Source: an uncultured Candidatus Binatia bacterium
GTDB lineage: Bacteria > Desulfobacterota > Binatia > UBA9968 > JAJDTQ01
Length of the DNA stretch: 64,000 nucleotides
Assembly (NCBI GenBank): GCA_964291295.2
Contig: OZ219754.1
Location: 3,552,001 to 3,616,000 of the forward strand
Direction of reading: 5' to 3'
Part shown: positions 1,016 through 60,123 of the stretch, in pieces
How positions within the stretch are numbered: position 1 is the stretch's first letter
Layout: each line of letters starts with the position of its first letter
Program-made: the position numbers and the translations under genes
The notes under the pieces: model-generated
Told to the model about the DNA's origin: nothing
Database searches by the model: none
What the model saw: only the letters and a program-made list of their open reading frames with translations

Positions 1016-1636
1016 CTACAGCGGCGCCGGGTCCTCGAAGTTCCTGGTGTAGGGCAGCCTGGCGGCGGTCTTGTCGACCTCCGCCATGTTCTGGAGAAGC
1101 AGCGCGGTGGAGTCCCACGAGCCCGTGGTCAGGGCGTTGCGGTGGCCGTCGCTGATGTCGAGGTCGATTTCCTCGCCGTCCGGCAGGCGCACCTTCCGGG
1201 CGTCCAGATCCACCGTGAGTTCCACCGCGGGGTCCGACTCCACCAGGGTCATGAGCCTTCCGATGTCCTCCGACGACACCATCACCGCAGGCATCCCCAG
1301 CAGCACGCTGCTGCCGGCGAAGATGGGGCCGAAGGACTCGCCGATGAGGACCCGGATGCCCCAGCGGTACAGAGCCTGCGGTGCGTGCTCCCGTGACGAC
1401 CCGCAGCCGAAGTTGCGGTTCACCAGCAGGACCTCGGCACCCTGGAAGCGCGCCTCGTTGAACGGATGATCGACGAGGTTGCCGCCGGCATCGCGGCGTT
1501 CGTCGAAGAACGGGTACTCGCCCATGCGGTTGAAGGTGATCTCCTTGAGGTAGCGGGCCGGCACGATTCGGTCGGTATCGATATCGTGTCCGCGCACCAC
1601 CACCGCCCTGCCGCTGACCTGCCTGATCTCGTTCAT
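1016..1636 (-). CDS. leuD: 3-isopropylmalate dehydratase small subunit
   Basis: [24 protein letters not shown]; ATG 1636 overlaps the leuC stop (ATGA). Confidence 0.95.
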
Positions 1637-3039
1637 GGTTCCCTCGTGTACGTGCGCACGTCCACGACCCTGCCGTTCAGGGCCGCCGCGGCCACCATGG
1701 CGGGACTCATCAGCAGCGTCCGTCCCTCCGGGCTGCCCTGGCGGCCGATGAAGTTGCGGTTCGATGACGACGCGCACACTTCGCGGCCGTTGAGCTTGTC
1801 GGGGTTCATGGCCAGACACATGGAGCAACCCGCCTCCCGCCATTGAAAGCCGGCTTCGGTGAAGATCCGGTCGAGCCCGGCCGCCTCCGCCTGTTTCTTG
1901 ACCTCCACCGATCCGGGCACCACCAGCGCCCGCACGCCGGATGACACCTGGTTGCCCTTGGCAATACGCGCCGCGGCCACCAGATCGGAGAACCGTGAGT
2001 TGGTGCAGGAGCCGATGAACGCCACGTCGATGGGAGTCCCGAGAATCGGAGCGCCCGGCGTCCAGCCCATGTGCTGGTAGGCCTTCTCGACGGTCCCGGG
2101 ATCCTGCAGCTCTTCGGGGCGAGGCAGGTTCTCCAGCACCCCCAGCGCCTGTCCGGGATTGATGCCCCAGGTCACCGTCGGCTCGATGACCGAGCCGTCG
2201 ATGTCCACCACGTCGTCGTAGCGGGCGTCCGGATCCGACGCCATGGAGCGCCAGTACGCCACCGCGCGGTCGAAGGCCTCGCCCTTGGGCGCGAACTGCC
2301 GTCCCAGCAGGAAGTCGAAGGTGGTCAGGTCGGGGTTGACGTAACCCACCAGGGCGCCGCCCTCGATGCTCATGTTGCAGACGGTCATGCGTTCTTCCAT
2401 GTTCATGGCATCCAGCACCGCGCCGCCGTACTCGTACGCGAATCCCTTGCCGCCGCCGACCCCCAGCTGCCGGATGATGGTCAGGATCACATCCTTGGCG
2501 TGCACGCCCAGGGGGAGACGGCCGTTGACGTTGATGCGCCGCACCTTGAGCCGGTCCATGGACAGGGTCTGGGTGGCCAGCACGTCGCGCACCTGACTGG
2601 TGCCGATGCCGAAGGCCAAGGTCCCGAACGCCCCGTGGGTGCTCGTGTGGCTGTCGCCGCATGCCAGCGTCATCCCCGGCTGGGTCAGGCCGAGTTGCGG
2701 GCCGATGACGTGGACGATGCCCTGCCGGTCGTTACCCGGGCCGTAGTACTCGATGCCGAAGTCACGGACATTCTTCTCCAGCGCGGCCATCATCGCCTCG
2801 GCCTGACCGTCGGCAAAGGGCCGGACCCGGGAGTCCGTGGGTATGATGTGATCGGCGGTGGCGAAAGTCCGCTGGGGCCAAGCGATGGGAAGCCCGCGTT
2901 CCCGCAGCATGTCGAAAGCCTGGGGGGTGGTGACTTCGTGGACCAGGTGCAGTCCGATAAAGAGCTGGGTCTGCCCGGTGGGCAACGTCGTGACGGTGTG
3001 GGCGTCCCAGACCTTGTCATACAGCGTACGTTCAGACAT
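1633..3039 (-). CDS. leuC: 3-isopropylmalate dehydratase large subunit
   Basis: [48 protein letters not shown]. Confidence 0.97.
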
Positions 3040-3042
3040 GAA

Positions 3043-3855
3043 TCAATCTTCTCCTTGTCGGGAATCATAGCCAGCGACCCCGGCCACTTCAAGGGAAGCG
3101 CCGCGGCCGGGAACGCCGCCGCTCCGGTAGGACACCTCCGCCAGGAACAGGCCCCGGGCCGGTGCGGTGACGCCGGCCCGGGTGCGGTCACGGCCGTCCA
3201 TGAGCGCCCCCAGTTCGCCCGGGTCCCGTTCGCCGAGTCCCGCCTGCACCAGCGTGCCGACGATGTTCCGCACCATGTGCCGGAGGAACCCGGTGGCTTC
3301 GATGCGGTAGACCCAGTGGTCCTCCCACGGATAAAGCGCGTTGCCGTAGATCCGCCGGATCGGCGTGGCGGCGCCGCACCCGGAGGCCCGGAAACACGAG
3401 AAGTCGTGTTCCCCTTCCAGTGCCGGCAACGCCTTGCGCATGGCGTCGATGCACAAGGGCCTGGGAATGTGCCACGCGTAGCGGTCATGGAACACCGACC
3501 GCCAGCGGTGGTTCCACAGCCGGTACTCGTAGACGCGCCGCCGGGCATCCCGGCGGGCATCGAACGAAGCGGACGCCGCCTCCGCCGCCCTGACGGTGAT
3601 GTCGTCCGGGGTGAGGGCGTTCAGGCCCCGCTGGATGCGCGTCAGGTCCCGGTCGTCGGCGCAGACGAAGTTCGCCACCTGGCCCAGCGCATGAACGCCC
3701 GCATCGGTTCGTCCGGACCCATGGACCTGGACCCTGTCCCCCAGCAGCACGGCCAGTGCATCTTCCAGGACACCCTGGATCGTCGGCCCCTGGGGCTGGA
3801 CCTGCCATCCGCGGTAACGGGTACCGTCGTACTCCAGGGTCAATCGGACGTTCAT
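3043..3855 (-). CDS. truA: tRNA pseudouridine(38-40) synthase
   Basis: YDGTRYRGWQ, GSGRTDAGVHA, FLRHMVRNIVG. Confidence 0.96.
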   Translation of the reverse strand: MNVRLTLEYDGTRYRGWQVQPQGPTIQGVLEDALAVLLGDRVQVHGSGRTDAGVHALGQVANFVCADDRDLTRIQRGLNALTPDDITVRAAEAASASFDARRDARRRVYEYRLWNHRWRSVFHDRYAWHIPRPLCIDAMRKALPALEGEHDFSCFRASGCGAATPIRRIYGNALYPWEDHWVYRIEATGFLRHMVRNIVGTLVQAGLGERDPGELGALMDGRDRTRAGVTAPARGLFLAEVSYRSGGVPGRGASLEVAGVAGYDSRQGED

Positions 3856-3898
3856 GGGGTCCCTCGGCTCGAGCCGGGAAACAGCGCCGGCGGGCGGA

Positions 3899-4921
3899 TC
3901 AGTGGCGGTTCCGGATCAGGATCTCGGCGATCTGCACCGCGTTGAGGGCCGCGCCCTTGCGCAGGTTGTCGGCCACCACCCACAGGTTGATGCCGTTCTC
4001 CACGGACGTGTCCTCACGGATGCGTCCGACACGGGTGGCGTCCTTGCCCGCCGCCTCGGTGGCGAGCGGATAGTCGTTGCTCCGGGGCTCGTCCTGGAGC
4101 AGCACGCCGGGGGCCTCCCGGAGAATGGCACGGACGTCGTCCGCCGACAGCCGGGTCCGGGTCTCGACATTGATGGACTCGGAGTGGCTGCAGAAAACCG
4201 GCACGCGCACGGCGGTGGCGGTGATGCGGATGTCCGGGTCGTCCAGGATCTTGCGCGTCTCCTGGACCATCTTCATCTCTTCCCGGGTGTAGCCGTCGGG
4301 CAGGAACGTATCGATGTGGGGAATGCAGTTGAACGCAATCGGGTGCGGAAACTGCTCGCACTCCACATCGTGGCTGTTGAACAACGCCGCGGTCTGCTTG
4401 CCGAGTTCCTCCATGGCGCGCCGCCCGGCTCCGGACACCGACTGGTAGGTGGAAACCACGATGCGGCGGATGCCCGCGGCGTCGTACAGCGGCTTGAGCG
4501 CCACCACCATCTGAATGGTGGAGCAGTTGGGATTGGCGATGATGCCACGGCGGACGTGTTCGTCGATCTTGTCCGCGTTGACTTCCGGCACCACCAGCGG
4601 CACGTCGTCGTCCATGCGGAAACGGCTGGTGTTGTCGATGACCACCGCGCCCGCGTCCACCGCCGCCGGGGCGTACTCGGCGCTCACCGACGAACCCGCG
4701 GAGAAGAGGGCGATGTCGATGCCGGCGAAGGAGTCCTCGGTCAGCACCTCCACCGGAATCTGCCGGCCGCGGAATTCGAGACGCTGGCCGGCGGAGCGCT
4801 CGGAGGCCAGCAACCGGAGGGTGTCCACCGGAAACCGGCGCTCCTCGAGAATCTTCCGCATCTCCTCGCCCACCACCCCGGTGGCTCCCACCACGGCTAC
4901 GTTGTGGCTGTCCTTGCCCAT
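3899..4921 (-). CDS. asd: aspartate-semialdehyde dehydrogenase
   Basis: VVGATGVVG, IIANPNCSTIQM, YQSVSGAG, DNLRKGAALNAVQIAE. Confidence 0.96.
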   Translation of the reverse strand: MGKDSHNVAVVGATGVVGEEMRKILEERRFPVDTLRLLASERSAGQRLEFRGRQIPVEVLTEDSFAGIDIALFSAGSSVSAEYAPAAVDAGAVVIDNTSRFRMDDDVPLVVPEVNADKIDEHVRRGIIANPNCSTIQMVVALKPLYDAAGIRRIVVSTYQSVSGAGRRAMEELGKQTAALFNSHDVECEQFPHPIAFNCIPHIDTFLPDGYTREEMKMVQETRKILDDPDIRITATAVRVPVFCSHSESINVETRTRLSADDVRAILREAPGVLLQDEPRSNDYPLATEAAGKDATRVGRIREDTSVENGINLWVVADNLRKGAALNAVQIAEILIRNRH

Positions 4922-4931
4922 GAGCTTCGCT

Positions 4932-6026
4932 TCAGGCCGCGCGGCTCGCCGCAATCTCCTGCCGCACCCGCGCGCCCATTTCCCTGCAACCCACCACCGG
5001 GGCCTCCTCCCCGGCGATATCCGGGGTGCGGTGCCCGGCGTCCAGCACCCGTTCCACCGCCCCCTCGATACAGTCCGCGGCGGCGCCCCGGTCCAGCGAA
5101 TGACGGAGCATGAGCGCCACGGTCAGGATGGCCGCCAGCGGATTGGCCTTGTCCTGGCCGGCGATGTCCGGAGCGCTGCCATGCACCGGCTCGTACAGGC
5201 CCACCTTGCCGCCGAGGCTGGCGGACGGCAGCATGCCGATGGAGCCGGTGAGCATGGCGGCCTCATCGCTGAGAATGTCCCCGAACATGTTGGTGGTCAC
5301 GATGACGTCGAACTGCCTGGGGTCCCGTATGAGCTGCATGGCGCAGTTGTCCACCAGCATGTGGTCGAGCCTGACGTCGCCGTAGCCTTCTTCCTCGTGG
5401 ATCCGGGTCACCACCCTGCGCCACAGCTCGGTGGATTCCAGCACGTTGGCCTTGTCCACCGAGGTGACCCGGTGCCGCCTTCGGCGCGCGGCGTCGAAGG
5501 CCATCCTGGCGATCCGTTCGATCTCCCGGGTCGTGTAGATCAGGGTGTTGACTCCCCGCTCGCCGCCGCCGGGCTCCGGGGTGATGCCCTTGGGCTGCCC
5601 GAAGTAGATACCCCCCGTCAACTCGCGCACCACCACCAGGTCAGTGCCCGCCACCACCTCGGGCTTGAGCGTCGAGGCCTGCGCCAGCGGTGCGAACAGC
5701 CGGACCGGGCGCAGATTGGCGAACAGCCCCAACTCCCGGCGCAACGCCAGCAAGGCCCGCTCCGGACGGATGGCATAGTCCAGCCCGTCCCACCTGGGCC
5801 CGCCCATGGCACCCAGCACCACCGCGTCGCTGGCCTTGGCCAAGGCCAGGACCTCGTCGGTCAGCGGGGTGCCGTGAGCGTCAATGGACGCTCCGCCGAC
5901 CAGACCTTCCTCCACCTCAATGGTGAAGTCGAAGAGGTCGCCCGCCTGGCGCAGCACCGTCATGGCCTCTGCCACGACTTCCGGACCGATGCCGTCGCCC
6001 GGAAGCACCGTGATCTTGTGATTCAT
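4932..6026 (-). CDS. leuB: 3-isopropylmalate dehydrogenase
   Basis: [34 protein letters not shown]; ATGA overlap with leuA. Confidence 0.96.
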
Positions 6027-7579
6027 GGCCCCCCCTCTGCCGAAGCCTGGCGGTGTCGCTTGCGATACTCCAGCCGGTTCAGCGCGTTCACATACGCCAG
6101 CGCACTCGCCATGAGGATATCCGTATGGGAACCCTTGCCCGAGATGTGAATGTCCTTTTCCTGAAGCATGCACGACACCTCGCCCTGGGCGTCCGTGCCG
6201 CCGGTGACGCTGGAAACCGAGTAGCGCCGCAGCGTCGCCTGGCTGCCGGCGATCCTGGCGATGGCTTTGTAACAGGCATCCACCACCCCGTCACCGGTAT
6301 CGTGGACCATCTTCTCCTCGCCGTCCACCCGCATGCGAATGGTGGCCGACGGCACCGCCGACGAACTGGTGGCGACGTTCATGTACAGGAGTTCGTAACG
6401 GTCCGGCTGACTCGGTATCCGCAACACCTCATCCGCCACCAGGGCCTCGATGTCCTCGTCGAACACTTCCTTCTTCTTGTCGGCGAGCTCCTTGAACCGC
6501 TCGAAGGCGCGGCCGACTTCGTCCTTGCCGAGCGAGAAACCGAGTTGCCGCAGCCTCTCGCCGAAGGCGTGCCGCCCGGAGTGCTTGCCCATGACCAGCC
6601 GGTTGCCCGTGATGCCGACGGTCTCGGGTTTCATGATTTCGTAGGTGAGCTTCTGCTTCAGCACACCGTCCTGATGAATCCCGGCCTCATGGGCGAAAGC
6701 GTTGTCGCCGACGATGGGCTTGTTGAGAGGAACCGTGATGCCGGTGACCTGGGACAGCAGACGCGAGGTGGGGTATATCTGCTCGGTATGAATGCGCGTG
6801 TCGAGATTGAACACCGGCTGGCGCGTCTTCAACGCCATCACCACCTCTTCCAGCGAGGTATTGCCGGCGCGCTCGCCGATGCCGTTCACCGTACACTCCA
6901 CCTGCCGCGCTCCGTTGGCCACGGCGGCCAGGGAGTTGGCCACGGCGAGGCCCAGGTCGTTGTGGCAGTGGGCGCTCCAGACGACCTTGTCCGAACCCTC
7001 GGTGTTCTCCATCAGGTACCGCACCAGCTCACCGAACTCGGTGGGGATGGCGTAGCCGGTGGTGTCGGGGATGTTGAGGGTCTTCGCCCCGGCCCGGATG
7101 GCCTCGCCGAACACTTCGACCAGGAAGTCCCGGTCGCTGCGGGAGGCGTCCTCGGCCGAAAACTCGACGTAGTCCAGGTGCTTTCTGGCGTAGGCCACCG
7201 CCGTACCCACGGACTCCATCACCTCGTCCCGGGACATGCGGAGCTTGTGCTTCATATGGATGTCGGAGGTGGCGATGAAGGTGTGGAGCCCGGGCTTGCG
7301 CGCGCCTTCCACCGCCTTGACGGCCTTCTGGATGTCGCCGATCTGCGCCCTGGCCAGGCTGAGGACGATGGGGCGCCTCACGGCCTTGCACACCTGCACC
7401 ACCGATTCGAAATCACCCGGAGACGAGGCGGCGAAACCGGCTTCGATGACGTCCACGCCCAGCTTGTCCAGTTGACGGGCGATGAGGACCTTCTCGTCCA
7501 TGTTCATGCTTGCCCCGGGGGACTGCTCGCCGTCCCTGAGGGTGGTATCGAAAATATTCACGATGTTCCTGGAGCCCAT
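6023..7579 (-). CDS. leuA: 2-isopropylmalate synthase
   Basis: [40 protein letters not shown]-terminal regulatory domain; GAGGAG RBS at 7592-7587. Confidence 0.96.
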
Positions 7580-51931: not shown

Positions 51932-53051
51932 CACCCCGGTTTCCACATTCGCGCGGCGGGGCATCGTCGAAGGCTTCTTCGGTCCCCCGTGGAGCCGGGC
52001 CCACCGCGCGGCCATGTTCGCGTTTGGCGCCGCGCGCGGCATGAACACCTACCTCTACGCACCCAAGGACGACCCCTACCACCGGGAGCGCTGGCATCAG
52101 CCCTACCCGGAGACGGAATGGCGCGAACTCTGCGCGCTCATCGACGCGGCCCGGGGCTGCGGCATCGACTTCGTCTACGGCTTTCACCCGGGCCGGAACC
52201 TCCGCTTTGCCGCGGCGGAACCGGTGCGCCTTCTGCTCGACAAGGCGGCGCGTCTCCAGGATCGGGGCGTGCGCACCTTTGCGGTGCTGTTCGACGACAT
52301 TCCGTCGCGGCTGACGCACACCGAAGACAGGAAGAGGTTCGACGGCAGCCTGGCCAAGGCCGAGTCCCTGTGGCTCGAGGCGGTGCTGGAACAACAGCCC
52401 GCGGGCCGCGATGCGGCGTGGTGGTTCTGTCCCTCGTACTACACGCCCGACCCGCTGTTGGCCCAGACCTTCGGCGAGTTCGAGCCGGAGTTCCCCGAGA
52501 CCGTCGGGCGGTACCTGCCGGCGCCGGTCGACTGCTTATGGACCGGCCCCAAGGTGGTGCCGGAAAGCGTCACCCTGGAACACATGGAGGAGATCGGCCA
52601 ACGGATGGGTCACCGGCTGCTGCTCTGGGACAACTACCCGGTCAACGACCTGACCCGGGCCGACGCCATGCATATCGGCCCCCTCACCGGCCGAGACCCG
52701 CGGCTGCCGGAGCGGGTGCACGCGCACTTGGCCAACCCGCTCCTGCAGGAGCAGCTCAGCTTCATTCCCCTGGCCACCTGCTTCGACTATGCGCGGGAGC
52801 CCGGCACCTACGACCCGGAAACGAGTTGGGATGCGGCGGTGACGGAACGGTTCGGCGCGGCCCACCTGGAACACTGGCGGGCACTCCGGCGGTTCTGCGA
52901 ACAGGATGCCGGCGGCGGCGCGGCGAGGTGCCCCGAGTCCGAGCGGGGCACGCTGGAAGCGGCCCACGCCTACCTGCAGGCCCACCGCGGCGAAGCGTGG
53001 TGCCGTGAATTCGAGCCGTGGCGGGAGCGGCTGGAACAGGCGCTCCGGTAA
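51903..53051 (+). CDS. GH84 beta-N-acetylglucosaminidase (O-GlcNAcase) catalytic domain, no signal peptide
   Basis: RGIVEGFFGPPWS, MNTYLYAPKDDPYHR, catalytic LFDDI, FCPSYY, LWTGPKVV, WDNYPVND; the only in-frame start before the first motif is GTG 51903. Confidence 0.88.
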   Translation: MPGCTTWVRNTPVSTFARRGIVEGFFGPPWSRAHRAAMFAFGAARGMNTYLYAPKDDPYHRERWHQPYPETEWRELCALIDAARGCGIDFVYGFHPGRNLRFAAAEPVRLLLDKAARLQDRGVRTFAVLFDDIPSRLTHTEDRKRFDGSLAKAESLWLEAVLEQQPAGRDAAWWFCPSYYTPDPLLAQTFGEFEPEFPETVGRYLPAPVDCLWTGPKVVPESVTLEHMEEIGQRMGHRLLLWDNYPVNDLTRADAMHIGPLTGRDPRLPERVHAHLANPLLQEQLSFIPLATCFDYAREPGTYDPETSWDAAVTERFGAAHLEHWRALRRFCEQDAGGGAARCPESERGTLEAAHAYLQAHRGEAWCREFEPWRERLEQALR

Positions 53052-53055
53052 CATC

Positions 53056-54363
53056 ATGGACGACAGGACCGTCACCACCCGCGAACTGCTGGCAACCCTG
53101 GAAGAGGTCCGTTCCCGGACCCTGGGTCTGGTGGAGGATCTGTCCGGCGCGCAACTCACCGTGCCCATGTGGAACATCGTCAATCCCCCGCTCTGGGAGA
53201 TCGGACATGTCTCCTGGTTCCACGAACGGTGGGCGCTGCGGCATCTGCGCGGCCGCCGCCCCATCATTGCCAACGGCGACCAACTGTACGATTCCGCGGC
53301 CGTGCACCACGACACCCGCTGGGCGCTGGCGCTGCCGCCGCTGGAGGAAACCCTCGCCTACAAGGCCCGGGTCCTCCGGGAGATCACCGAAGCGCTTCCC
53401 GCCCAACGGCTCGGTCCGGAGGAGACCTGGTTCCACAGGCTGGTCCTCTTTCACGAGGACATGCACGCGGAGGCCATGACCTACACGCGCCAGACCCTGG
53501 GCTATCCCCCGCCTCGGTTCGCGTCCGGACGCGCGGCGCCCCGGGGCGGGCCGTGCCCCGGCGATGTGGCGGTGCCGGGCGGTGCGTTCATCCTCGGCGG
53601 CACGCCGGATCTGCCCTTCGTCTTCGACAACGAGAAGTGGGGGCATCGGGTGACCGTGGCACCATACCGCATGGCCCGGGCGCCGGTAACCAACGAAGCG
53701 TTTGCCGCATTCGCCGACGACAACGGCTACCGGAATCCCCGGTGGTGGAGCACCGAGGGCTGGAACTGGCGGCAGGCCGAGAACCCGGCGCATCCCGTCT
53801 ACTGGAAGCGGGAGGCCCCGGGGCGGTGGCTGGAGCGGCTCTTCGACCGATGGTTGCCACTTCAGCCCGAACTGCCGGTCATCCACGTCAACTGGTACGA
53901 AGCCGAGGCCTGGTGCCGCTGGGCCGGACGCCGGCTGCCCACCGAGGCGGAGTGGGAAATGGCCGCGGCCTCCGGTCCCGGCCCGGGAGCGGCCAAGCGC
54001 GGCTACCCGTGGGGCGACGCCCCGCCGGACCCGGCCTGCGGCAATCTCGACTGGGCGGCCGGCGGACGGCTGCCCGTGGACGCGCTGTCCGCGGGCGACA
54101 GCGCCTTCGGCTGCCGGCAGATGATCGGCAATGTGTGGGAGTGGACAGCCGACACCTTCCACCCCTATCCCGGATTCGTGCGGGATCCCTACAAGGAATA
54201 CTCGGAACCCTGGTTCGGCCACCGCAAAGTGCTGCGCGGCGGCTGCTGGGCCACCCGCTCGCACCTGATCCGCAACACCTGGCGGAACTTCTTCACGCCG
54301 GACCGGCGGGACGTCCTGGCCGGCTTTCGCACCTGCGCGCGCGAGCGGCACGACCGCCGCTAG
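53056..54363 (+). CDS. senA: selenoneine synthase (EgtB-like non-heme iron enzyme)
   Basis: NPPLWEIGHVSWFHERW and FHEDMHAEAMTYTRQTL (SenA-type, not EgtB HHEQQHQE); FGE-like domain (FDNEKW, RLPTEAEWE, GNVWEW, RNFF); adjacent to senB. Confidence 0.85.
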   Translation: MDDRTVTTRELLATLEEVRSRTLGLVEDLSGAQLTVPMWNIVNPPLWEIGHVSWFHERWALRHLRGRRPIIANGDQLYDSAAVHHDTRWALALPPLEETLAYKARVLREITEALPAQRLGPEETWFHRLVLFHEDMHAEAMTYTRQTLGYPPPRFASGRAAPRGGPCPGDVAVPGGAFILGGTPDLPFVFDNEKWGHRVTVAPYRMARAPVTNEAFAAFADDNGYRNPRWWSTEGWNWRQAENPAHPVYWKREAPGRWLERLFDRWLPLQPELPVIHVNWYEAEAWCRWAGRRLPTEAEWEMAAASGPGPGAAKRGYPWGDAPPDPACGNLDWAAGGRLPVDALSAGDSAFGCRQMIGNVWEWTADTFHPYPGFVRDPYKEYSEPWFGHRKVLRGGCWATRSHLIRNTWRNFFTPDRRDVLAGFRTCARERHDRR

Positions 54364-54376
54364 ACTGGAAGACAAC

Positions 54377-55357
54377 TTGGCACGAAAGAACCCCGCGCCG
54401 ACCCGGGTTGCCCTCGTGACCCCCGCCGGGCCCACGCGGCGTACGGGCAACCGGATATCCGGAGGCAGGTGGGCGCGCATCCTCCGGGCCTCGGGACATC
54501 GGGTTGCAGCCCTGGACCGATATGAACGCGAGCCCTGCGACCTGCTGATCGCACTCCACGCCCGGCGCAGCCATGACTCCATCCGGCGGTTCCGCGACCG
54601 GCATCCCGGCAAGCCGCTGGTCGTGGTGTTGACCGGCACGGACCTCTACCGCGACATTCACGTGGACCCGGACTCCCGGGAATCCCTGGGGTTGGCCGAC
54701 CGCCTGGTGGTGCTGCAGCGCAAGGGGCTGGACGAACTCGCTCCGGGGCTGCGCGGGAAGACCCGGGTCATCTACCAGTCCGCCTCGGCCCGCCCCGGCC
54801 GCCCCGGCGACCCCGGCAAGCAGTTCACCGTGGCCGTGGTGGGCCACATGCGCCCGGAGAAGGACCCGTTCCGGACGGCCATGGCGGTGCGTTCATTGCC
54901 GCGCGCATCACGGGTCCGGGTGGTGCACATCGGCGCCGCCTTCAGCAACGGCATGGCCCGGCGCGCGGCGCGGGAGGCGGAACGCAATCCTCGCTACCGG
55001 TGGCTGGGCGAACTGCCCCACTGGAGGACGCGGCAACTCCTGGCCAACAGCCACCTGGCCTCCCTCACCTCGCGCATGGAGGGCAGCTCGAACGTCCTGT
55101 GCGAGGCGCTGGCCTCCAGCGTACCCGTGGCGGCCTCCAGGATCTCCGGACTGATGGGCACCCTGGGAGAAGATTTTCCGGGCTACTACGAACTCGGCGA
55201 CACCGCCGGCCTGAAGCGCCTGCTGCTCCGGGCCGAGAACGACCCGCCTTTCTACCAGAGCCTGGCGCGGCACTGCGCCGAGGTGGCGCCGCTGGTGAAT
55301 CCCGAGCGCGAGATCCGGACGTGGCAGGGATTGATCGATGAGCTTACGACGGGTTGA
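54377..55357 (+). CDS. senB: selenosugar synthase, GT-B glycosyltransferase
   Basis: VTPA...GNR...RWA, LIALHARRS, VLTGTDLYRDI, GHMRPEKDP, SRMEG..NV..EA; TTG start. Confidence 0.87.
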   Translation: MARKNPAPTRVALVTPAGPTRRTGNRISGGRWARILRASGHRVAALDRYEREPCDLLIALHARRSHDSIRRFRDRHPGKPLVVVLTGTDLYRDIHVDPDSRESLGLADRLVVLQRKGLDELAPGLRGKTRVIYQSASARPGRPGDPGKQFTVAVVGHMRPEKDPFRTAMAVRSLPRASRVRVVHIGAAFSNGMARRAAREAERNPRYRWLGELPHWRTRQLLANSHLASLTSRMEGSSNVLCEALASSVPVAASRISGLMGTLGEDFPGYYELGDTAGLKRLLLRAENDPPFYQSLARHCAEVAPLVNPEREIRTWQGLIDELTTG

Positions 55358-55381: not shown

Positions 55382-56539
55382 TCAGCCGGACAGCACCTCG
55401 ATCAGATTGTCCGCCACGGTGTCCAACTCGCGGCGGGTGATGACCAGCGGCGGCAGCAGCCGGATCACCGTCGATCCCGCGGGCAGCGCCAGCACGCCTT
55501 TCTCCAGCAACGCCACGAGATGGGGCTGGGACTTCTCCCTGAGTTCGATGCCGATCATCAAGCCCAGCTGGCGGATCTCTCGAACCCTGGGCAAATCCGC
55601 GGCCCTGAGCCGCTCCACCAGACGGGCACCCTTCTCCTCGGCGGCCTCGGCCAGCCGCTCGTCGATCATGGCGTCGATGGCCGCCAGCGCGGCGGCGCAT
55701 GCCAGCGGGTTGCCGCCGAAGGTGCTGCCGTGGCGCCCCACCGGCACCTGGACGTTGTCGGCGCAGACCACCGCGCCCATGGGGATGCCTCCGGCCATGG
55801 CCTTGGCCAGGCACAGGATGTCGGGCTCGAGACCGAAATGCTCGCAGGCGAACATCCGGCCGGTGCGGCAAAAGCCGGTCTGGACCTCGTCGACAATGAA
55901 AAGGACGCCCCGCTCCCGGCACAGTTCGCTCACCTGGGCGAAGAACTCGGCCTGGCCCAGATTGACGCCGCCCTCGCCCTGGACGATCTCCAGCATCACC
56001 GCTGCGGTGCCGTCATTCACCTTCTCCGCCAACTTGGCGAAGTTGTTGAAGGGCGTGAACTGGAAGCCCTCGACGACGGGCAGGAAGGGTTCGCGGTACT
56101 CCTTCGTGAACGTGGCGCTCAGCGCCCCCATGGTGCGGCCGTGAAATCCGCGCATGGCGCACACGAACTCCTGCCTGCCGGTGGTGAAGCGGGCGAACTT
56201 GATGGCCGCCTCGATGGTTTCGGTGCCCGAGTTGCACAGGAAGGCGCGGTTGAGATTGCCGGGGGTGATGCCGGCCAGCCGTTCCAGCAGCCGCGCCCTG
56301 ACGTCGTTGTAGAAGATGCCGGGGCAGCTCATCAGACGTCCGGCCTGCTCGGCCACCGCCCGCACCACTCCGGGGTGGCCGTGCCCCAGGTTGGCGACGC
56401 CGTGGCCGGCCACACAGTCGATGTACTCACGACCCTCGTCGTCCCAGACCCGGGCGCCCTCGCCGCGCACCAACACGACGTCGCGCTTGGGATAGACATC
56501 GAACTCGTACCGTTGCTGCAACGCCTTCAGGTCCGTCAC
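55382..56539 (-). CDS. lysJ: [LysW]-aminoadipate/glutamate semialdehyde transaminase (LysJ/ArgD)
   Basis: NSGTETIEAAIK, GFHGRT.GALS, VQGEGG, DEVQTG, LAKAMAGG, HGSTFGGNPL; in the LysW operon. Confidence 0.85.
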   Translation of the reverse strand: MTDLKALQQRYEFDVYPKRDVVLVRGEGARVWDDEGREYIDCVAGHGVANLGHGHPGVVRAVAEQAGRLMSCPGIFYNDVRARLLERLAGITPGNLNRAFLCNSGTETIEAAIKFARFTTGRQEFVCAMRGFHGRTMGALSATFTKEYREPFLPVVEGFQFTPFNNFAKLAEKVNDGTAAVMLEIVQGEGGVNLGQAEFFAQVSELCRERGVLFIVDEVQTGFCRTGRMFACEHFGLEPDILCLAKAMAGGIPMGAVVCADNVQVPVGRHGSTFGGNPLACAAALAAIDAMIDERLAEAAEEKGARLVERLRAADLPRVREIRQLGLMIGIELREKSQPHLVALLEKGVLALPAGSTVIRLLPPLVITRRELDTVADNLIEVLSG

Positions 56540-57327
56540 CGGATCACCGTTCCTTTCCCCGCCAGGGCGTCCCGCACCGGATGCGCCACCCGGCCGTCGC
56601 CCATGATGACCTTTTTCGCGCCCTCCTCGAACAGCTGGCGCAGAGCCCGCATCTTGCGCTTCATGCGCCCTTCCACCTGGGCCTCCCGCTGCTCGAGTTC
56701 GGCAACGCGGAGGGCGGGCACCACGGTGCTCTCGTCGTCCTTGTCCGCGAGAAACCCGGGTGCCTCGATGAGTTGCAGCACCACCTCGGCATGAAAGGCG
56801 GCCTGGAGCACGTTGAGGATGTCGTCGTTCTCCGAGTTGATGGCGGTGTGGTGCTCGTCGAGAATGGGGATGGACAGCACCGGCACGTAGCCCCCGTCAA
56901 GCAGCCACTGGAACAACTCCTTGTTGGCGCTCCTGGGCTTGCCGGAGAAGTCCCGGACGATGACGGTCTTGCCGTTCTTCCGCACCCGGATGCCCTTGTT
57001 GCGCCGTCCCTGGATGGCGCGGCCGTCGATGCCCGAGAGGCCCACGGCGTTGACCCCGTTCTGCTGCAGCAACTCCACGATGCGCTTGTTCTGAACGCCC
57101 GCGTAACCCATGAGGATGGCGTCGAGCGCGGCCTTGTCGGAAAGCACGCTGGTGTAGCCCGACACCGACGTCACCACCTGGGTGGGGCTGCCCAGCCTGG
57201 CCGCGATGGCGTCCCGCAACGCGTTGGCGCCGTGCACCACGATGAAACGGTCCGTTGCCGAGGCCAGATCCTCGGCAATGCCCGGCAGGTTGATGGCGCC
57301 GCCGCCGCCGACCTTCACCAGAATCAT
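56536..57327 (-). CDS. lysZ: [LysW]-aminoadipate/glutamate kinase
   Basis: MILVKVGGG, VVHGA, SVSGYTSV.SD, GLSGIDG, GRMKRK; coupled to both neighbours. Confidence 0.87.
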   Translation of the reverse strand: MILVKVGGGGAINLPGIAEDLASATDRFIVVHGANALRDAIAARLGSPTQVVTSVSGYTSVLSDKAALDAILMGYAGVQNKRIVELLQQNGVNAVGLSGIDGRAIQGRRNKGIRVRKNGKTVIVRDFSGKPRSANKELFQWLLDGGYVPVLSIPILDEHHTAINSENDDILNVLQAAFHAEVVLQLIEAPGFLADKDDESTVVPALRVAELEQREAQVEGRMKRKMRALRQLFEEGAKKVIMGDGRVAHPVRDALAGKGTVIR

Positions 57328-57962
57328 CGGAGCCGCTCCACCGTGTCGTTGGGGATCATGCGCCACTCCGGCAGGTCCGCCACGGTCTCGGAACTGACGG
57401 TGAAACCGCCGCCGCTCTCGCGCAAGCGCAGCCTGAAGTACTCCGGCGCCTCGTTGTAGAACGATCCCACGTAGACATTCTCCCGGTCCGCGATGATCAT
57501 GTTCATGGCCCGGACGTAGCGCGTCCTGCGGACCAGCAGATCCATCCCCTTGCGCAGGGCCGCGGCCATGTCGCCCTTGTCGAAGCGCTTGATGGTGTTG
57601 AACACCTTTTCCGCGCCGATGCGGCCTTCCGCGCGGATCCGGACACCCCGCAACTCGCCGTTGAACGCGAACACGTACCGGTGGTCGGAGAACGGCATGT
57701 TGTTCTCCACCACGACGTTCTCGTCCCGGAACGCGCTGCGGGCATGACCCACCAGCAGCGTCGTGGCGCCGAACCGATCCAGGTCGTCCTCCCAGATGGG
57801 CCTGATGTTGCGATAGATCCGCCACGCGCCGTCCACGAGGAAGGCGCAGCCCCAGCCGTGACCCTGGTATTCGGGGCTGCGGCGGGCGATGTCGGCCAGC
57901 TCCGTCAGGCGCGAGCCGATGTCGAACGGCTCCCGGTTCTTGACGCACAACAGGCGGCACAT
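57324..57962 (-). CDS. class II glutamine amidotransferase-like Ntn hydrolase (EgtC/YafJ/DUG3-like)
   Basis: N-terminal MCRLL (Cys nucleophile), HGWG, GHARSA, NNMPF, FNGEL, VSSE. Confidence 0.82.
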   Translation of the reverse strand: MCRLLCVKNREPFDIGSRLTELADIARRSPEYQGHGWGCAFLVDGAWRIYRNIRPIWEDDLDRFGATTLLVGHARSAFRDENVVVENNMPFSDHRYVFAFNGELRGVRIRAEGRIGAEKVFNTIKRFDKGDMAAALRKGMDLLVRRTRYVRAMNMIIADRENVYVGSFYNEAPEYFRLRLRESGGGFTVSSETVADLPEWRMIPNDTVERLR

Positions 57963-57981: not shown

Positions 57982-59034
57982 CTAGGCGCCCGGGTGCAGC
58001 CCCGGGAACTCCAGTCCCAGGGTCTCCTCGAAGCCGCTCATGAGGTTGAAGGCCTGAACCGCCTGGCCCGAGGCGCCCTTCATGAGATTGTCCAGCGCGC
58101 TCAGCACCACCAGCCGGTCCGACCCTTTCTCCTTCTGGAAACCGATGTCGCAGTAATTGGTGCCGCTCAGCAGCTTCGGTTCCGGATAGCGGTAGATCCC
58201 GTCGGCCTCCTTCACGATGCGGAGAAAAGGCTCCCTGCCGTAGACCTCGCGGTAGAGCTTCCAGACATCCTTTTCTTCAAGCGGTTCCTTGAGGAACAGG
58301 TGGCAGGTGGCCAGCACCCCCCGCACCCTCTCGATGGAGGTGGCGGAAAAGTAGACCCGGATGGGCTTGCCGAAACCCAGTTCCTGGACGATCTCCGCGC
58401 CGTGGCGGTGCCGGGTGGGCATGAACGAGCGCACGGCGCCGCTCCGTTCCGGATGGTGGGACGCGTCGGTGGCAACGCGGCCGCCCTCGCTGGAGCCCAC
58501 CTTGACCTCCACCACCGTGCGGTCCGTGTCCACCAATCCTTTGCTGAAGAACGGGTAGATGCCGAGGATGGTGGCGGTGGCGTTGCAGCCGGCGCCGGTG
58601 ACGAGACGCGCGCCCCGGATCTCCTCGCGGTGCAGTTCGGGAACGCCGTAGACGAACTCCTCGAGGAGATCCGGGCGCGGGTGGTGCGTCCCGTACCAGC
58701 ACCGGTACGCCTCCGCGTCGTTGAGCCGGAAGTCGGCGCTCAGGTCGATGAGCTTCGGCGCCAGTGCCCGGAACGAATCGATGCGCTCCATGGCCTGGCC
58801 GTGGGGCAGGCAGAGGAACAGCAGGTCGCACGGCTTGATTTCGTCCATCGTGCGGAAGCGCAGCTGCGTCCGCTTGCGCAGATTGGGATGGGCCTTGAAC
58901 AGAAACTTGCCGGCGTAGCGCTCCGAGGTGACGTCGCCGACCTCCACCCGGGGGTGCCAAAGGAGCAGGCGCAGGAGCTCGCCGCCGGTGTAGCCGGAGC
59001 CCCCCACGATGGAGACCCTCAGCTTGTCCGCCAC
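57982..59034 (-). CDS. lysY: [LysW]-aminoadipyl/glutamyl-phosphate reductase (LysY/ArgC)
   Basis: GGSGYTGGELLRLL, LPHG, IDLSADFRL, GAGCNATA, SHHPERS, DNLMKGASG. Confidence 0.9.
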   Translation of the reverse strand: MADKLRVSIVGGSGYTGGELLRLLLWHPRVEVGDVTSERYAGKFLFKAHPNLRKRTQLRFRTMDEIKPCDLLFLCLPHGQAMERIDSFRALAPKLIDLSADFRLNDAEAYRCWYGTHHPRPDLLEEFVYGVPELHREEIRGARLVTGAGCNATATILGIYPFFSKGLVDTDRTVVEVKVGSSEGGRVATDASHHPERSGAVRSFMPTRHRHGAEIVQELGFGKPIRVYFSATSIERVRGVLATCHLFLKEPLEEKDVWKLYREVYGREPFLRIVKEADGIYRYPEPKLLSGTNYCDIGFQKEKGSDRLVVLSALDNLMKGASGQAVQAFNLMSGFEETLGLEFPGLHPGA

Positions 59035-59089
59035 GGCTGCCGCCCTCCTCCCCGGCACGTCCCGCGCATCCGCTCCCCGCGCCGGCCCA

Positions 59090-59962
59090 TCAGGCCACGT
59101 CCCTGCGCGCCTGCTCTTCCCGCGCCGCGCCGAGCACATGCGCGACGATGAGCCCGGGAATGTTCACCCCGGTGGTATCGATGCTGTTCCGGAACTCCAT
59201 GGTGTAGTTGACTTCGTTGACCAGAAGGCCGCCGACGGTTTCAAGCAGGTCCACCGCAACGATACCGCCGCCCACCGCCCGGGCGGCGCGGAGCGAGAGG
59301 TCTCGCAACTCGTCCGTGACCGGGCAGTTCTCGGCGCGTCCTCCCCGGGCCGTGTTGGTGATCCAGTGCCCGCTGTAGCGGTAGATGGCGGCGACGCACG
59401 CGTCGCCCACGACAAAGCTCCGGATGTCGCGCCCGGTCTTCTCGATATACTCCTGAACGTAGAAGATGGAGTGGTGGTAACTGCCCAGGATCGCCTTGTG
59501 TTCGAGGATCGTTTCGGCCGCGTCCCGGTCGTTCACCTTGGCCAGCAGCCGGCCCCAGGAGCCCACCGCCGGCTTCAGCACCACCGGGTAGCCCATCGCC
59601 TCGATGGCCTCCAGGGTGGATTCCTCGGTGAAGGCGATGCGCACCTCGGGCTGGGGCACGCCGTGCTCCTGCAGGTGTACCGAAGTGAGGATCTTGTCGC
59701 CGCATACCGTGGCCACCGACGACGCGTTGATGCAGCGCACCCCCGCGCTCTCGAAGAGCCGCAGCCCGTGCAGCGCCCGGGAATGGTTGATGCACCGCTC
59801 CAGCAGAACGTCCAGGTCGAACCGGTCCTTGCCCAGGTTGAATGCGAGCCGCCGGTCGTCGATCAATTGGAGTTCCACGCCGGCATGCCGGCGAAACTCC
59901 TTGATCAGCAGCTTCTCCTCCGGGCGCACCAGTGAATGCAGCAACCCGATTTTCAAGCTCAT
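59090..59962 (-). CDS. lysX: amino acid--LysW ligase (LysX/ArgX, ATP-grasp)
   Basis: [47 protein letters not shown]. Confidence 0.92.
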
Positions 59963-60123
59963 TCCCCCCAGTCTTCCTCTTCCTGGGGCGCCTCTTCCAC
60001 CGCCGGAGGATCCAGGCTGGTGACCTCCAACTCGATACCGCAGTCGGCACAGGCGATCAGCTCGCCCTCCACCGCGTCATCCTCCAGTTCCAGTTCCGCG
60101 TCGCATACCGGGCACTCAACCAT
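59959..60123 (-). CDS. lysW: amino-group carrier protein LysW (54 aa, absent from the ORF track)
   Basis: [54 protein letters not shown]: two CxxC, C-terminal EDWGE, GGAGG RBS, ATGA overlap with lysX. Confidence 0.97.

Follow-up and report, generated by a model that had tools for sequence, protein, structure and literature searches.

The present study analyzes a LysW operon in a 64,000-nucleotide stretch of DNA from an uncultured Candidatus Binatia bacterium (the window, meaning that whole stretch at its full length), and in particular one gene of the operon whose product is predicted to be a hydrolase of the N-terminal nucleophile (Ntn) type, called here the Ntn protein, and is a candidate for the last step of the LysW pathway. 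Synthesis of lysine and arginine on the carrier protein LysW is a textbook example of amino-acid pathway evolution, with six enzymes thought to be known. The C-terminal Glu of LysW is the attachment site, and LysX couples the substrate amino acid to it. In the window the carrier ends in EEEDWGE, and the genes of the operon are the following:

59959-60123, minus strand: lysW, a 54-residue zinc-ribbon carrier (TIGR01206, 68.9 bits, cut-off 53.2; PF21344, 65.9 bits)
59090-59962, minus strand: lysX, a RimK-type ATP-grasp ligase (TIGR02144, 346 bits, cut-off 275.6; also PF22626 and PF08443)
57982-59139, minus strand: lysY/argC, an argC-type reductase (TIGR01850, 384 bits, cut-off 233.6)
57324-57962, minus strand: the Ntn gene, 212 residues with an MCRLL start, a predicted Cys-Ntn hydrolase, class II amidotransferase-like, with an EgtC-like fold
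56536-57327, minus strand: lysZ, a LysW-aminoadipate/glutamate kinase (NF010659, [LysW]-aminoadipate kinase, 243 bits, cut-off 223)
55382-56539, minus strand: lysJ, a class III aminotransferase (PF00202, 374 bits; TIGR00707, 420 bits, cut-off 410)

The genes lysW, lysX, lysY, lysZ and lysJ are adjacent on one strand, the first four scoring over their family cut-offs and lysJ over a subfamily cut-off; the LysJ_Th_th score of lysJ is 470 bits, under the cut-off of 700. Translation of lysY probably starts downstream of 59139, since residue 41 of the open reading frame is the first that the family model covers. The lysY stop (57982-57984) and the Ntn start (57962) are separated by 19 nt, the plus-strand "tcat" at 57324-57327 is an ATGA overlap of the Ntn stop with the lysZ start, and four-base overlaps likewise join lysW to lysX (ATGA) and the lysZ stop to the GTG start of lysJ. 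A first-pass annotation, made from the sequence alone, had described this placement of the Ntn gene between lysY and lysZ, and its coordinates and letters match. It had also held that every LysW-pathway step is present except LysK, the M20 metallopeptidase. That is so for lysW, lysX, lysY, lysZ and lysJ, and an M20 gene is indeed absent from the operon, but homocitrate synthase (HCS) is missing from it as well.

Scanning a single genome for each species gave 491 confirmed relatives of the Ntn gene, and the best 80 loci were analyzed. In all of these best 80 of 491 the Ntn gene is directly beside lysY and/or lysZ/lysJ, the commonest order being lysW-(HCS)-lysX-lysY-Ntn-lysZ-lysJ, and the submitters' labels span Binatia, Ignavibacteria/Melioribacter, Calditrichia, KSB1, Gemmatimonadota, Gammaproteobacteria, Bacteroidota/Rhodothermaceae, Planctomycetota and archaea. 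HCS lies between lysW and lysX in 25 of the 80, the homoaconitase large subunit is present in three loci (in two of these together with the small subunit) and homoisocitrate dehydrogenase in four, and therefore in those organisms this is an alpha-aminoadipate lysine operon. Two Ntn genomes labelled archaeal encode ribosomal protein S8e, and the archaeal Ntn-type copies are 48-55% identical to bacterial ones, suggesting transfer between domains.

Several variants of the operon were seen among these loci and among classical loci, that is, LysW operons that lack the Ntn gene. Small archaeal genomes with S8e (1.2-1.9 Mb; L052, L078 and L096; G499-G642) carry a complete Ntn-type operon with HCS, homoaconitase and homoisocitrate dehydrogenase. 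Loci labelled Gammaproteobacteria/Thiotrichales (L055, L069, L076, L080, L081, L083, L088 and L091) have lysW-lysX-lysY-Ntn with no adjacent lysZ/lysJ; L081 shows lysY-Ntn only, lysZ/lysJ lie 9 kb downstream in L055, and lysA was over its cut-off in 7 of 7 searched genomes of this set, which leaves out the genome of L080. Of the 21 Binatia-type loci (L017-L037), 20 have an additional class III aminotransferase, a paralogue with 33-35% identity to LysJ that is located between an amidohydrolase gene and lysW, some 1.3 kb upstream of the latter; the window is without it, and there the amidohydrolase gene is 214 nt from lysW. Two LysX paralogues, possibly a LysX/ArgX pair, were found in L049 and L060 (Ntn-type) and in L153 and L154 (classical), and L032 has a second tandem lysY-Ntn-lysZ-lysJ copy.

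Occurrence of the Ntn gene was compared with that of LysW. Among 251 genomes from the phylum of G043, a metagenome-assembled genome labelled Rhodothermaceae, LysW was over cut-off in 12 and the Ntn gene was present in the identical 12 and in no others; three of these were previously found carriers and nine were new. All eight genomes with LysW (E <= 1e-6) among 201 from the archaeal phylum of G021 had the Ntn gene. Within the phylum of the window genome (151 genomes), LysW was over cut-off in the window genome itself (G000), G075 and G086, with an in-operon copy at 48.7 bits in G061, and the Ntn gene was found in the window genome and G061. Weak LysW-like matches in G113, G127, G072, G066 and G121 had no lysX, lysY, lysZ or lysJ beside them and were taken to be other zinc ribbons.

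LysK was sought with TIGR01902 (cut-off 163 bits), the LysK equivalog model being NF003367 (cut-off 363 bits). The best match in the window genome (3.70 Mb, 99% complete) was 42 bits. Nine M20 peptidases are encoded elsewhere in that genome, namely one carbamoylase/allantoate-amidohydrolase, one PepT-like protein, one member of a dipeptidase-like family and six generic ArgE/DapE-family proteins, and none reached the ArgE, DapE or LysK equivalog cut-off, so that a lysK or argE elsewhere in the genome, a check proposed in the first-pass annotation, was not found over cut-off. LysK was likewise over cut-off in none of 50 Ntn-carrying genomes (50 of the 80 were searched; best score 106 bits), none of the 12 genomes with LysW and Ntn in the 251-genome sample, none of nine archaeal Ntn genomes and none of the 151 genomes of the window genome's phylum. 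The sets of 50, 12 and nine comprise 68 distinct Ntn carriers besides the window genome, with three genomes in two sets, and in a control for the search LysK was over cut-off in four of 14 control genomes.

The converse set consisted of 54 metagenome loci retrieved with LysZ of the Ntn-less operon of G075, and the Ntn gene was present in none of them. In 21 classical loci lysJ was complete and the sequence ran on for 1 kb or more, and in 20 of these LysK directly followed lysJ, scoring 277-343 bits with TIGR01902 and up to 410 bits with NF003367 (L139). When six classical LysK proteins were run by tblastn against the 80 Ntn loci, no orthologue came up; the sole match was a 25%-identical M20 gene 9 kb off in L045. 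Thus mutual exclusion of Ntn and lysK, for which the first pass had proposed a test, was observed at operon level from both sides, and the presence of LysK in the operon in 20 of 21 classical as opposed to 0 of 80 Ntn-type loci implies that something in the Ntn-type operon took the LysK slot. The G075 operon could have been an example with neither gene; this was rejected, since L139, with a 100% identical LysZ, has LysK directly after lysJ and the G075 contig ends where L139 shows LysK, which therefore is an assembly break. A LysZ tree of 117 rows (69 Ntn-type and 48 classical; quick search, LG+G4, unrooted) split the two types by one branch with 90 in the Shimodaira-Hasegawa-like approximate likelihood ratio test (SH-aLRT), and therefore the operon types are distinct lineages, the Ntn type being widely spread.

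There was one further arrangement among the Ntn-less loci. In L141 (6263-7910), L142, L143, L144 and L146 the slot between lysY and lysZ, which is the position of Ntn elsewhere, holds a CarboxypepD_reg protein and a CarboxypepD_reg/alpha/beta-hydrolase protein, and lysJ and lysK are not adjacent.

Evidence on other routes to lysine bears on whether a terminal hydrolase is required. In 46 Ntn-type genomes lysA was over cut-off in 25 and not in 21, the latter including the chromosome-level genomes G035 and G050, which have HCS in the operon and no LysK. An organism that lacks the diaminopimelate (DAP) route requires some hydrolase to complete the LysW route, and Ntn is the only uncharacterised, universally conserved gene of the operon. 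In the window genome the operon lysY is the sole ArgC-family match over cut-off.

By sequence, the Ntn protein scores under the gathering thresholds of both Pfam GATase_4 (21.2 vs 23 bits) and GATase_6 (21.2 vs 27 bits), it reaches 40 bits with the EgtC model TIGR03442 against an equivalog cut-off of 218.65, and profile search gave it no M20 match; precomputed PF13230 matches are present on some homologues. The family contains 3086 clusters at E <= 1e-3, nearly all of 207-230 residues and with cross-phylum identity of 55-60%, and the few members that have a name appear as "class II glutamine amidotransferase" or "hypothetical". An AlphaFold2 model (predicted local distance difference test, pLDDT, 87; predicted template modelling score, pTM, 0.88) has the four-layer alpha-beta-beta-alpha Ntn fold. 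Its best match in the PDB by Foldseek was EgtC (template modelling, TM, score 0.84, 2.7 A, E 1e-13, 17-20% identity), followed by PA1307-like 1te5, PurF and GlmS/GFAT at E 1e-7 to 1e-10 (the PurF/GlmS class at ranks 17-49). A profile search of PDB sequences also placed EgtC first (E 1e-4), aligning residues 33-107 and 178-208 only. The likeness to class II amidotransferases noted in the first pass is accordingly weak by sequence and strong by fold, and on profile and model evidence the protein is a Cys-Ntn amidohydrolase of EgtC-like kind, not EgtC.

The residues expected of such an enzyme are conserved. Cys2 directly follows Met1 in 118 of 120 homologues, and the other two look like start-site miscalls because each is 3 residues shorter; Arg75, Asn101, Gly102, Gly116 and Glu118 are invariant in all 120. 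In GlmS and PurF an Arg binds the substrate alpha-carboxylate and an Asn-Gly pair forms the oxyanion hole. The Arg of HARSAF and the Asn-Gly of FNGEL in the Ntn protein line up with the Arg of GHTRWAT and with HNG in the GlmS of the same genome, in an alignment to which hhalign gives a probability of 0.4%. The invariant G116-A117-E118, which lies beyond the aligned part, may be the counterpart of the amidotransferase Asp-x-Glu motif.

Three prediction runs for a complex of the Ntn protein with LysW scored 0.61, 0.61 and 0.62, against 0.01 for the highest of three controls. In calibration, 58 of 80 solved complexes attained this mark, as did 2 of 110 mismatched pairs; these counts hold only roughly here because our own family alignments were used. 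The three runs share at least 90% of contacts, with partner pLDDT of at least 77. LysW residues 45-54 contact Ntn residues 1-2, 75, 77-78, 89, 100-110, 115-117, 119-120 and 146-148 in the model, that is, the predicted catalytic pocket (Cys2/Arg75/Asn101-Gly102) plus a neighbouring loop and helix. Complexes of LysW with LysX, LysZ and LysY have been solved. We know of no solved complex of LysW with an Ntn hydrolase, and recall by the model is therefore unlikely. The modelling suggested in the first pass thus came out with the controls passed and the LysW C-terminus in the catalytic pocket.

Interface residues are nearly invariant among the 120 homologues, with a basic residue in 100% at positions 75, 108 and 119, in 97% at 146, in 88% at 105 and in 84% at 148, and in the complex model these conserved basic positions face the EEEDWGE tail of LysW. 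It had been suggested that an Arg-rich sequence would suit the acidic LysW. As a property of the family, Arg-richness was rejected, since net charge has a median of +1 (range -7 to +7) and the median isoelectric point is 7.8 over the 120 homologues; what holds is a conserved basic patch at the predicted interface.

On sequence and model evidence, then, it is likely that the Ntn protein is a stand-alone Cys-Ntn amidohydrolase that substitutes for the M20 enzyme LysK at the final step of the LysW pathway. The idea of a non-orthologous replacement of LysK, already put forward in the first pass, is backed by gene context, co-occurrence with LysW, exclusion with LysK, fold, conservation and the complex model; the substrate, the reaction and which amino acid would be released in the window genome are inferred. 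Removal of Met1 would first expose Cys2, and the conserved basic groove would bind the acidic EDWGE tail of LysW, with Arg75 pairing with the free alpha-carboxylate of the C-terminal residue of LysW. Cys2 would then attack the gamma-carbonyl of the isopeptide between Glu54 of LysW and the alpha-amino group of the completed Lys (or Orn), with Asn101-Gly102 as the probable oxyanion hole. The amino acid would depart and the LysW-gamma-thioester would be hydrolysed, regenerating the free carrier. We infer further that the side of the glutaminase pocket that receives a free alpha-amino group is rebuilt so that the LysW chain passes. Identical chemistry would deamidate variants of LysW that end in Gln.

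Several points weigh against replacement of LysK. First is that the alignment of the catalytic motifs to GlmS is of low probability (0.4%, as given above), and that no alignment was obtained for the segment to which the free alpha-amino group binds in amidotransferases, hidden Markov model (HMM) and hhalign alignments stopping at about residue 107. Secondly, some M20-type match to the LysK model (E <= 1e-5) was present in 47 of 50 and five of nine Ntn genomes, and a divergent M20 hydrolase elsewhere may perform the step, given these matches in 47 of 50 genomes and the six ArgE/DapE-family paralogues in the window genome. The 80 loci analyzed are the closest relatives of the Ntn gene (at least 48% identity), and the converse test rests on metagenome contigs. 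In G086 (90% complete), which has lysW-lysX-lysY at a contig end, neither Ntn nor LysK was found in the assembly. The window genome itself has lysA (523 bits), dapA (346), argJ (394) and argB (260), all over their cut-offs, and lacks a dedicated HCS, its HCS-like genes being 26-31% identical to the operon HCS, one of them in a leuA/leuB/leuCD-like cluster at 1121-7579 of the window (minus strand). With DAP and ArgJ routes present, the LysW operon is therefore not the sole possible source of Lys or Orn there, and its product may be Lys, Orn or something else. The window genome also has an argD-like gene, and lysine- and arginine-type genes were noted at C1:1488839-1498047 and C1:70271-71440.

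The alternative that survives best is an accessory role, in which the Ntn protein acts on LysW, either by maturing a terminal Gln to Glu or by clearing mis-charged or stalled carrier, and release is left to a divergent M20 or other hydrolase elsewhere. It could draw on the M20 matches and the six paralogues just described, and on the observation that 15 of 64 Ntn-type loci (L046, L047, L052, L055, L067, L069, L071, L072, L075, L080, L083, L086, L087, L088 and L091) encode a LysW with Gln as its last residue (EDWGQ). However, in the other 49 of the 64 LysW already ends in Glu and the Ntn gene is present in all of these, and one of 19 classical loci (L143) has a Gln-ending LysW. Moreover, there was no M20 match at E <= 1e-5 in three of 50 and four of nine Ntn genomes (the archaeal G039 is in both sets), and the LysK slot in the operon, filled in 20 of 21 classical and 0 of 80 Ntn-type loci, appears to have been taken. 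We therefore regard an accessory role as unlikely. A terminal Gln was considered separately as a marker of operon type and rejected, as it occurs in both (15 of 64 vs 1 of 19).

A second alternative is that the protein is a true glutaminase, an amidotransferase subunit that converts free glutamine to glutamate and supplies ammonia to a pathway enzyme, for example at the transaminase step. Cys2, Arg75 and Asn101-Gly102 would correspond to the catalytic residues of class II glutaminases, and the family carries the annotation class II glutamine amidotransferase in its sources, but there is no synthase domain and the only conserved partners are LysW enzymes. LysJ is an ordinary pyridoxal phosphate transaminase for which no ammonia channel is required, the modelled pocket is occupied by the LysW tail and not by a free amino acid, and the stretch that normally bears the Asp for a free alpha-amino group was unaligned to EgtC or GlmS. 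This explanation seems to us very improbable.

Least credible, with hardly any probability left to it, is an EgtC-type enzyme that serves the neighbouring selenoneine/ergothioneine genes and cuts a gamma-glutamyl-cysteine-derived adduct, for although EgtC is the best fold and HMM match and SenB and SenA adjoin lysJ on the opposite strand, the EgtC model gives 40 bits against 218.65, the Ntn gene has SenA/SenB close by in 20 of 21 Binatia-type loci and 0 of 59 loci of other lineages while adjacency to lysY/lysZ is found in 80 of 80, and the Ntn gene is translationally coupled to lysZ on the strand opposite senAB. An EgtC or selenoneine role was accordingly dismissed on the one-lineage adjacency and the score far under cut-off, in agreement with the first-pass annotation, which had thought it the less likely role. 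The neighbours in question are on the plus strand of the window, tail to tail with lysJ:

54377-55357, plus strand: SenB
52906-54363, plus strand: SenA
51903-53051, plus strand: a beta-N-acetylglucosaminidase-family gene

This trio recurs beside the operon only in Binatia-type loci (20 of 21). Farther off in the window, a 679-residue open reading frame rich in GGxGxD-type repeats (RTX-like, calcium-binding) at 47507-49546 on the minus strand adjoins a resistance-nodulation-division (RND) efflux pump and membrane-fusion protein (42094-46753).

Returning to the Ntn protein as the replacement of LysK, the Gln-ending carriers allow an extension of that reading. A carrier that ends in Gln would need deamidation before the ATP-grasp ligase LysX can load it, and this deamidation is again the hydrolysis of a gamma-amide, except that ammonia leaves, which suggests that the terminal hydrolase also matures the carrier. 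Tentatively, and with rather less than even confidence, we propose a two-job gamma-glutamyl amidase of a protein C-terminus that releases Lys or Orn from LysW and, in approximately a quarter of operons, first deamidates a Gln-ending pro-carrier. If this were true, it would be the first class II amidotransferase-type glutaminase acting on the C-terminal residue of a protein, and there would be a second, ancient and widely transferred lineage of the LysW pathway, in bacteria and DPANN-like archaea, built around Ntn.

Replacement of LysK, if correct, has several implications. A large and phylogenetically wide set of organisms, including Ignavibacteria, Rhodothermia-like Bacteroidota, Calditrichia, KSB1, Binatia, Gemmatimonadota, some Gammaproteobacteria and small archaea, would run the LysW pathway without LysK. 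Automatic reconstructions would call such organisms gapped or lysine auxotrophs, and filling the gap would correct metabolic models of uncultured lineages. More than 3000 sequence clusters, whose present labels are "class II glutamine amidotransferase" or "hypothetical", would gain a function as one family. The case would be a clean non-orthologous displacement, of a metallopeptidase by a thiol Ntn hydrolase, and would add a new enzyme that recognises a protein C-terminus with a gamma-linked amino acid. The claim is directly testable with the existing LysW biochemistry of Thermus and Thermococcus.

In the literature as far as open main texts cover it, without supplementary gene tables, we found nothing linking LysW with an amidotransferase, an Ntn hydrolase or an EgtC-type hydrolase, and no named substitute for LysK. 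The accessible portion of one preprint mentions LysW only for LysZ (bioRxiv 10.1101/2024.10.14.618325). The Caldithrix genome paper, in the part available, lists LysWXZYJ and Hcs without LysK, so that the gap is visible there and is not addressed in that part (PMC5317091). A "lysW" in PMC5584792 was discarded, as from the available text it is a different gene, a transporter.

Comparison with known systems places the Ntn protein between the enzymes whose fold it shares and the one whose step it would take. The glutaminase domains of GlmS and PurF (Pfam GATase_4/6/7) share with it the fold and the Cys1 nucleophile and, in the GlmS alignment of 0.4% probability, possibly the Arg and the Asn-Gly, whereas the Ntn protein is without a synthase domain and has a shorter segment after Asn-Gly with the invariant G116-A117-E118. 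EgtC hydrolyses a gamma-glutamyl amide, and PDB entry titles present it as an Ntn hydrolase with its natural substrate. EgtC (4zfj/4zfk/4zfl; TIGR03442) and the Ntn protein are both stand-alone domains of the class II amidotransferase-like kind, about 210-230 residues long and with Cys at the N-terminus, but they are only 17-20% identical, the middle third (about residues 108-177) is not aligned by HMM, and the context is egtABDE for EgtC and lysW for Ntn. The substrate of EgtC is a free gamma-glutamyl compound; that of the Ntn protein is presumed to be a protein C-terminus, with the alpha-amino group in a peptide bond.

LysK, the last-step hydrolase of the LysW pathway, also deacetylates N-acetylornithine in Thermus, according to the available part of PMC12998189; that activity is a trait of Thermus LysK, and nothing points to it for Ntn. 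LysK (NF003367/TIGR01902; Thermus, Sulfolobus and Thermococcus) is likewise encoded in lysW operons and belongs to the same pathway, and the reaction proposed for Ntn is that of LysK, the freeing of Lys or Orn from the gamma-carboxyl of the C-terminal Glu of LysW. The two differ in place, LysK after lysJ and Ntn between lysY and lysZ, and the presence of LysK in an operon excludes the Ntn gene. They are unrelated in fold and mechanism, a metal-dependent M20 enzyme as opposed to a Cys N-terminal nucleophile, with no sequence similarity. What is new here, judged from sequences and models, is thus probably a known pathway, that of LysW, with a non-homologous last enzyme.

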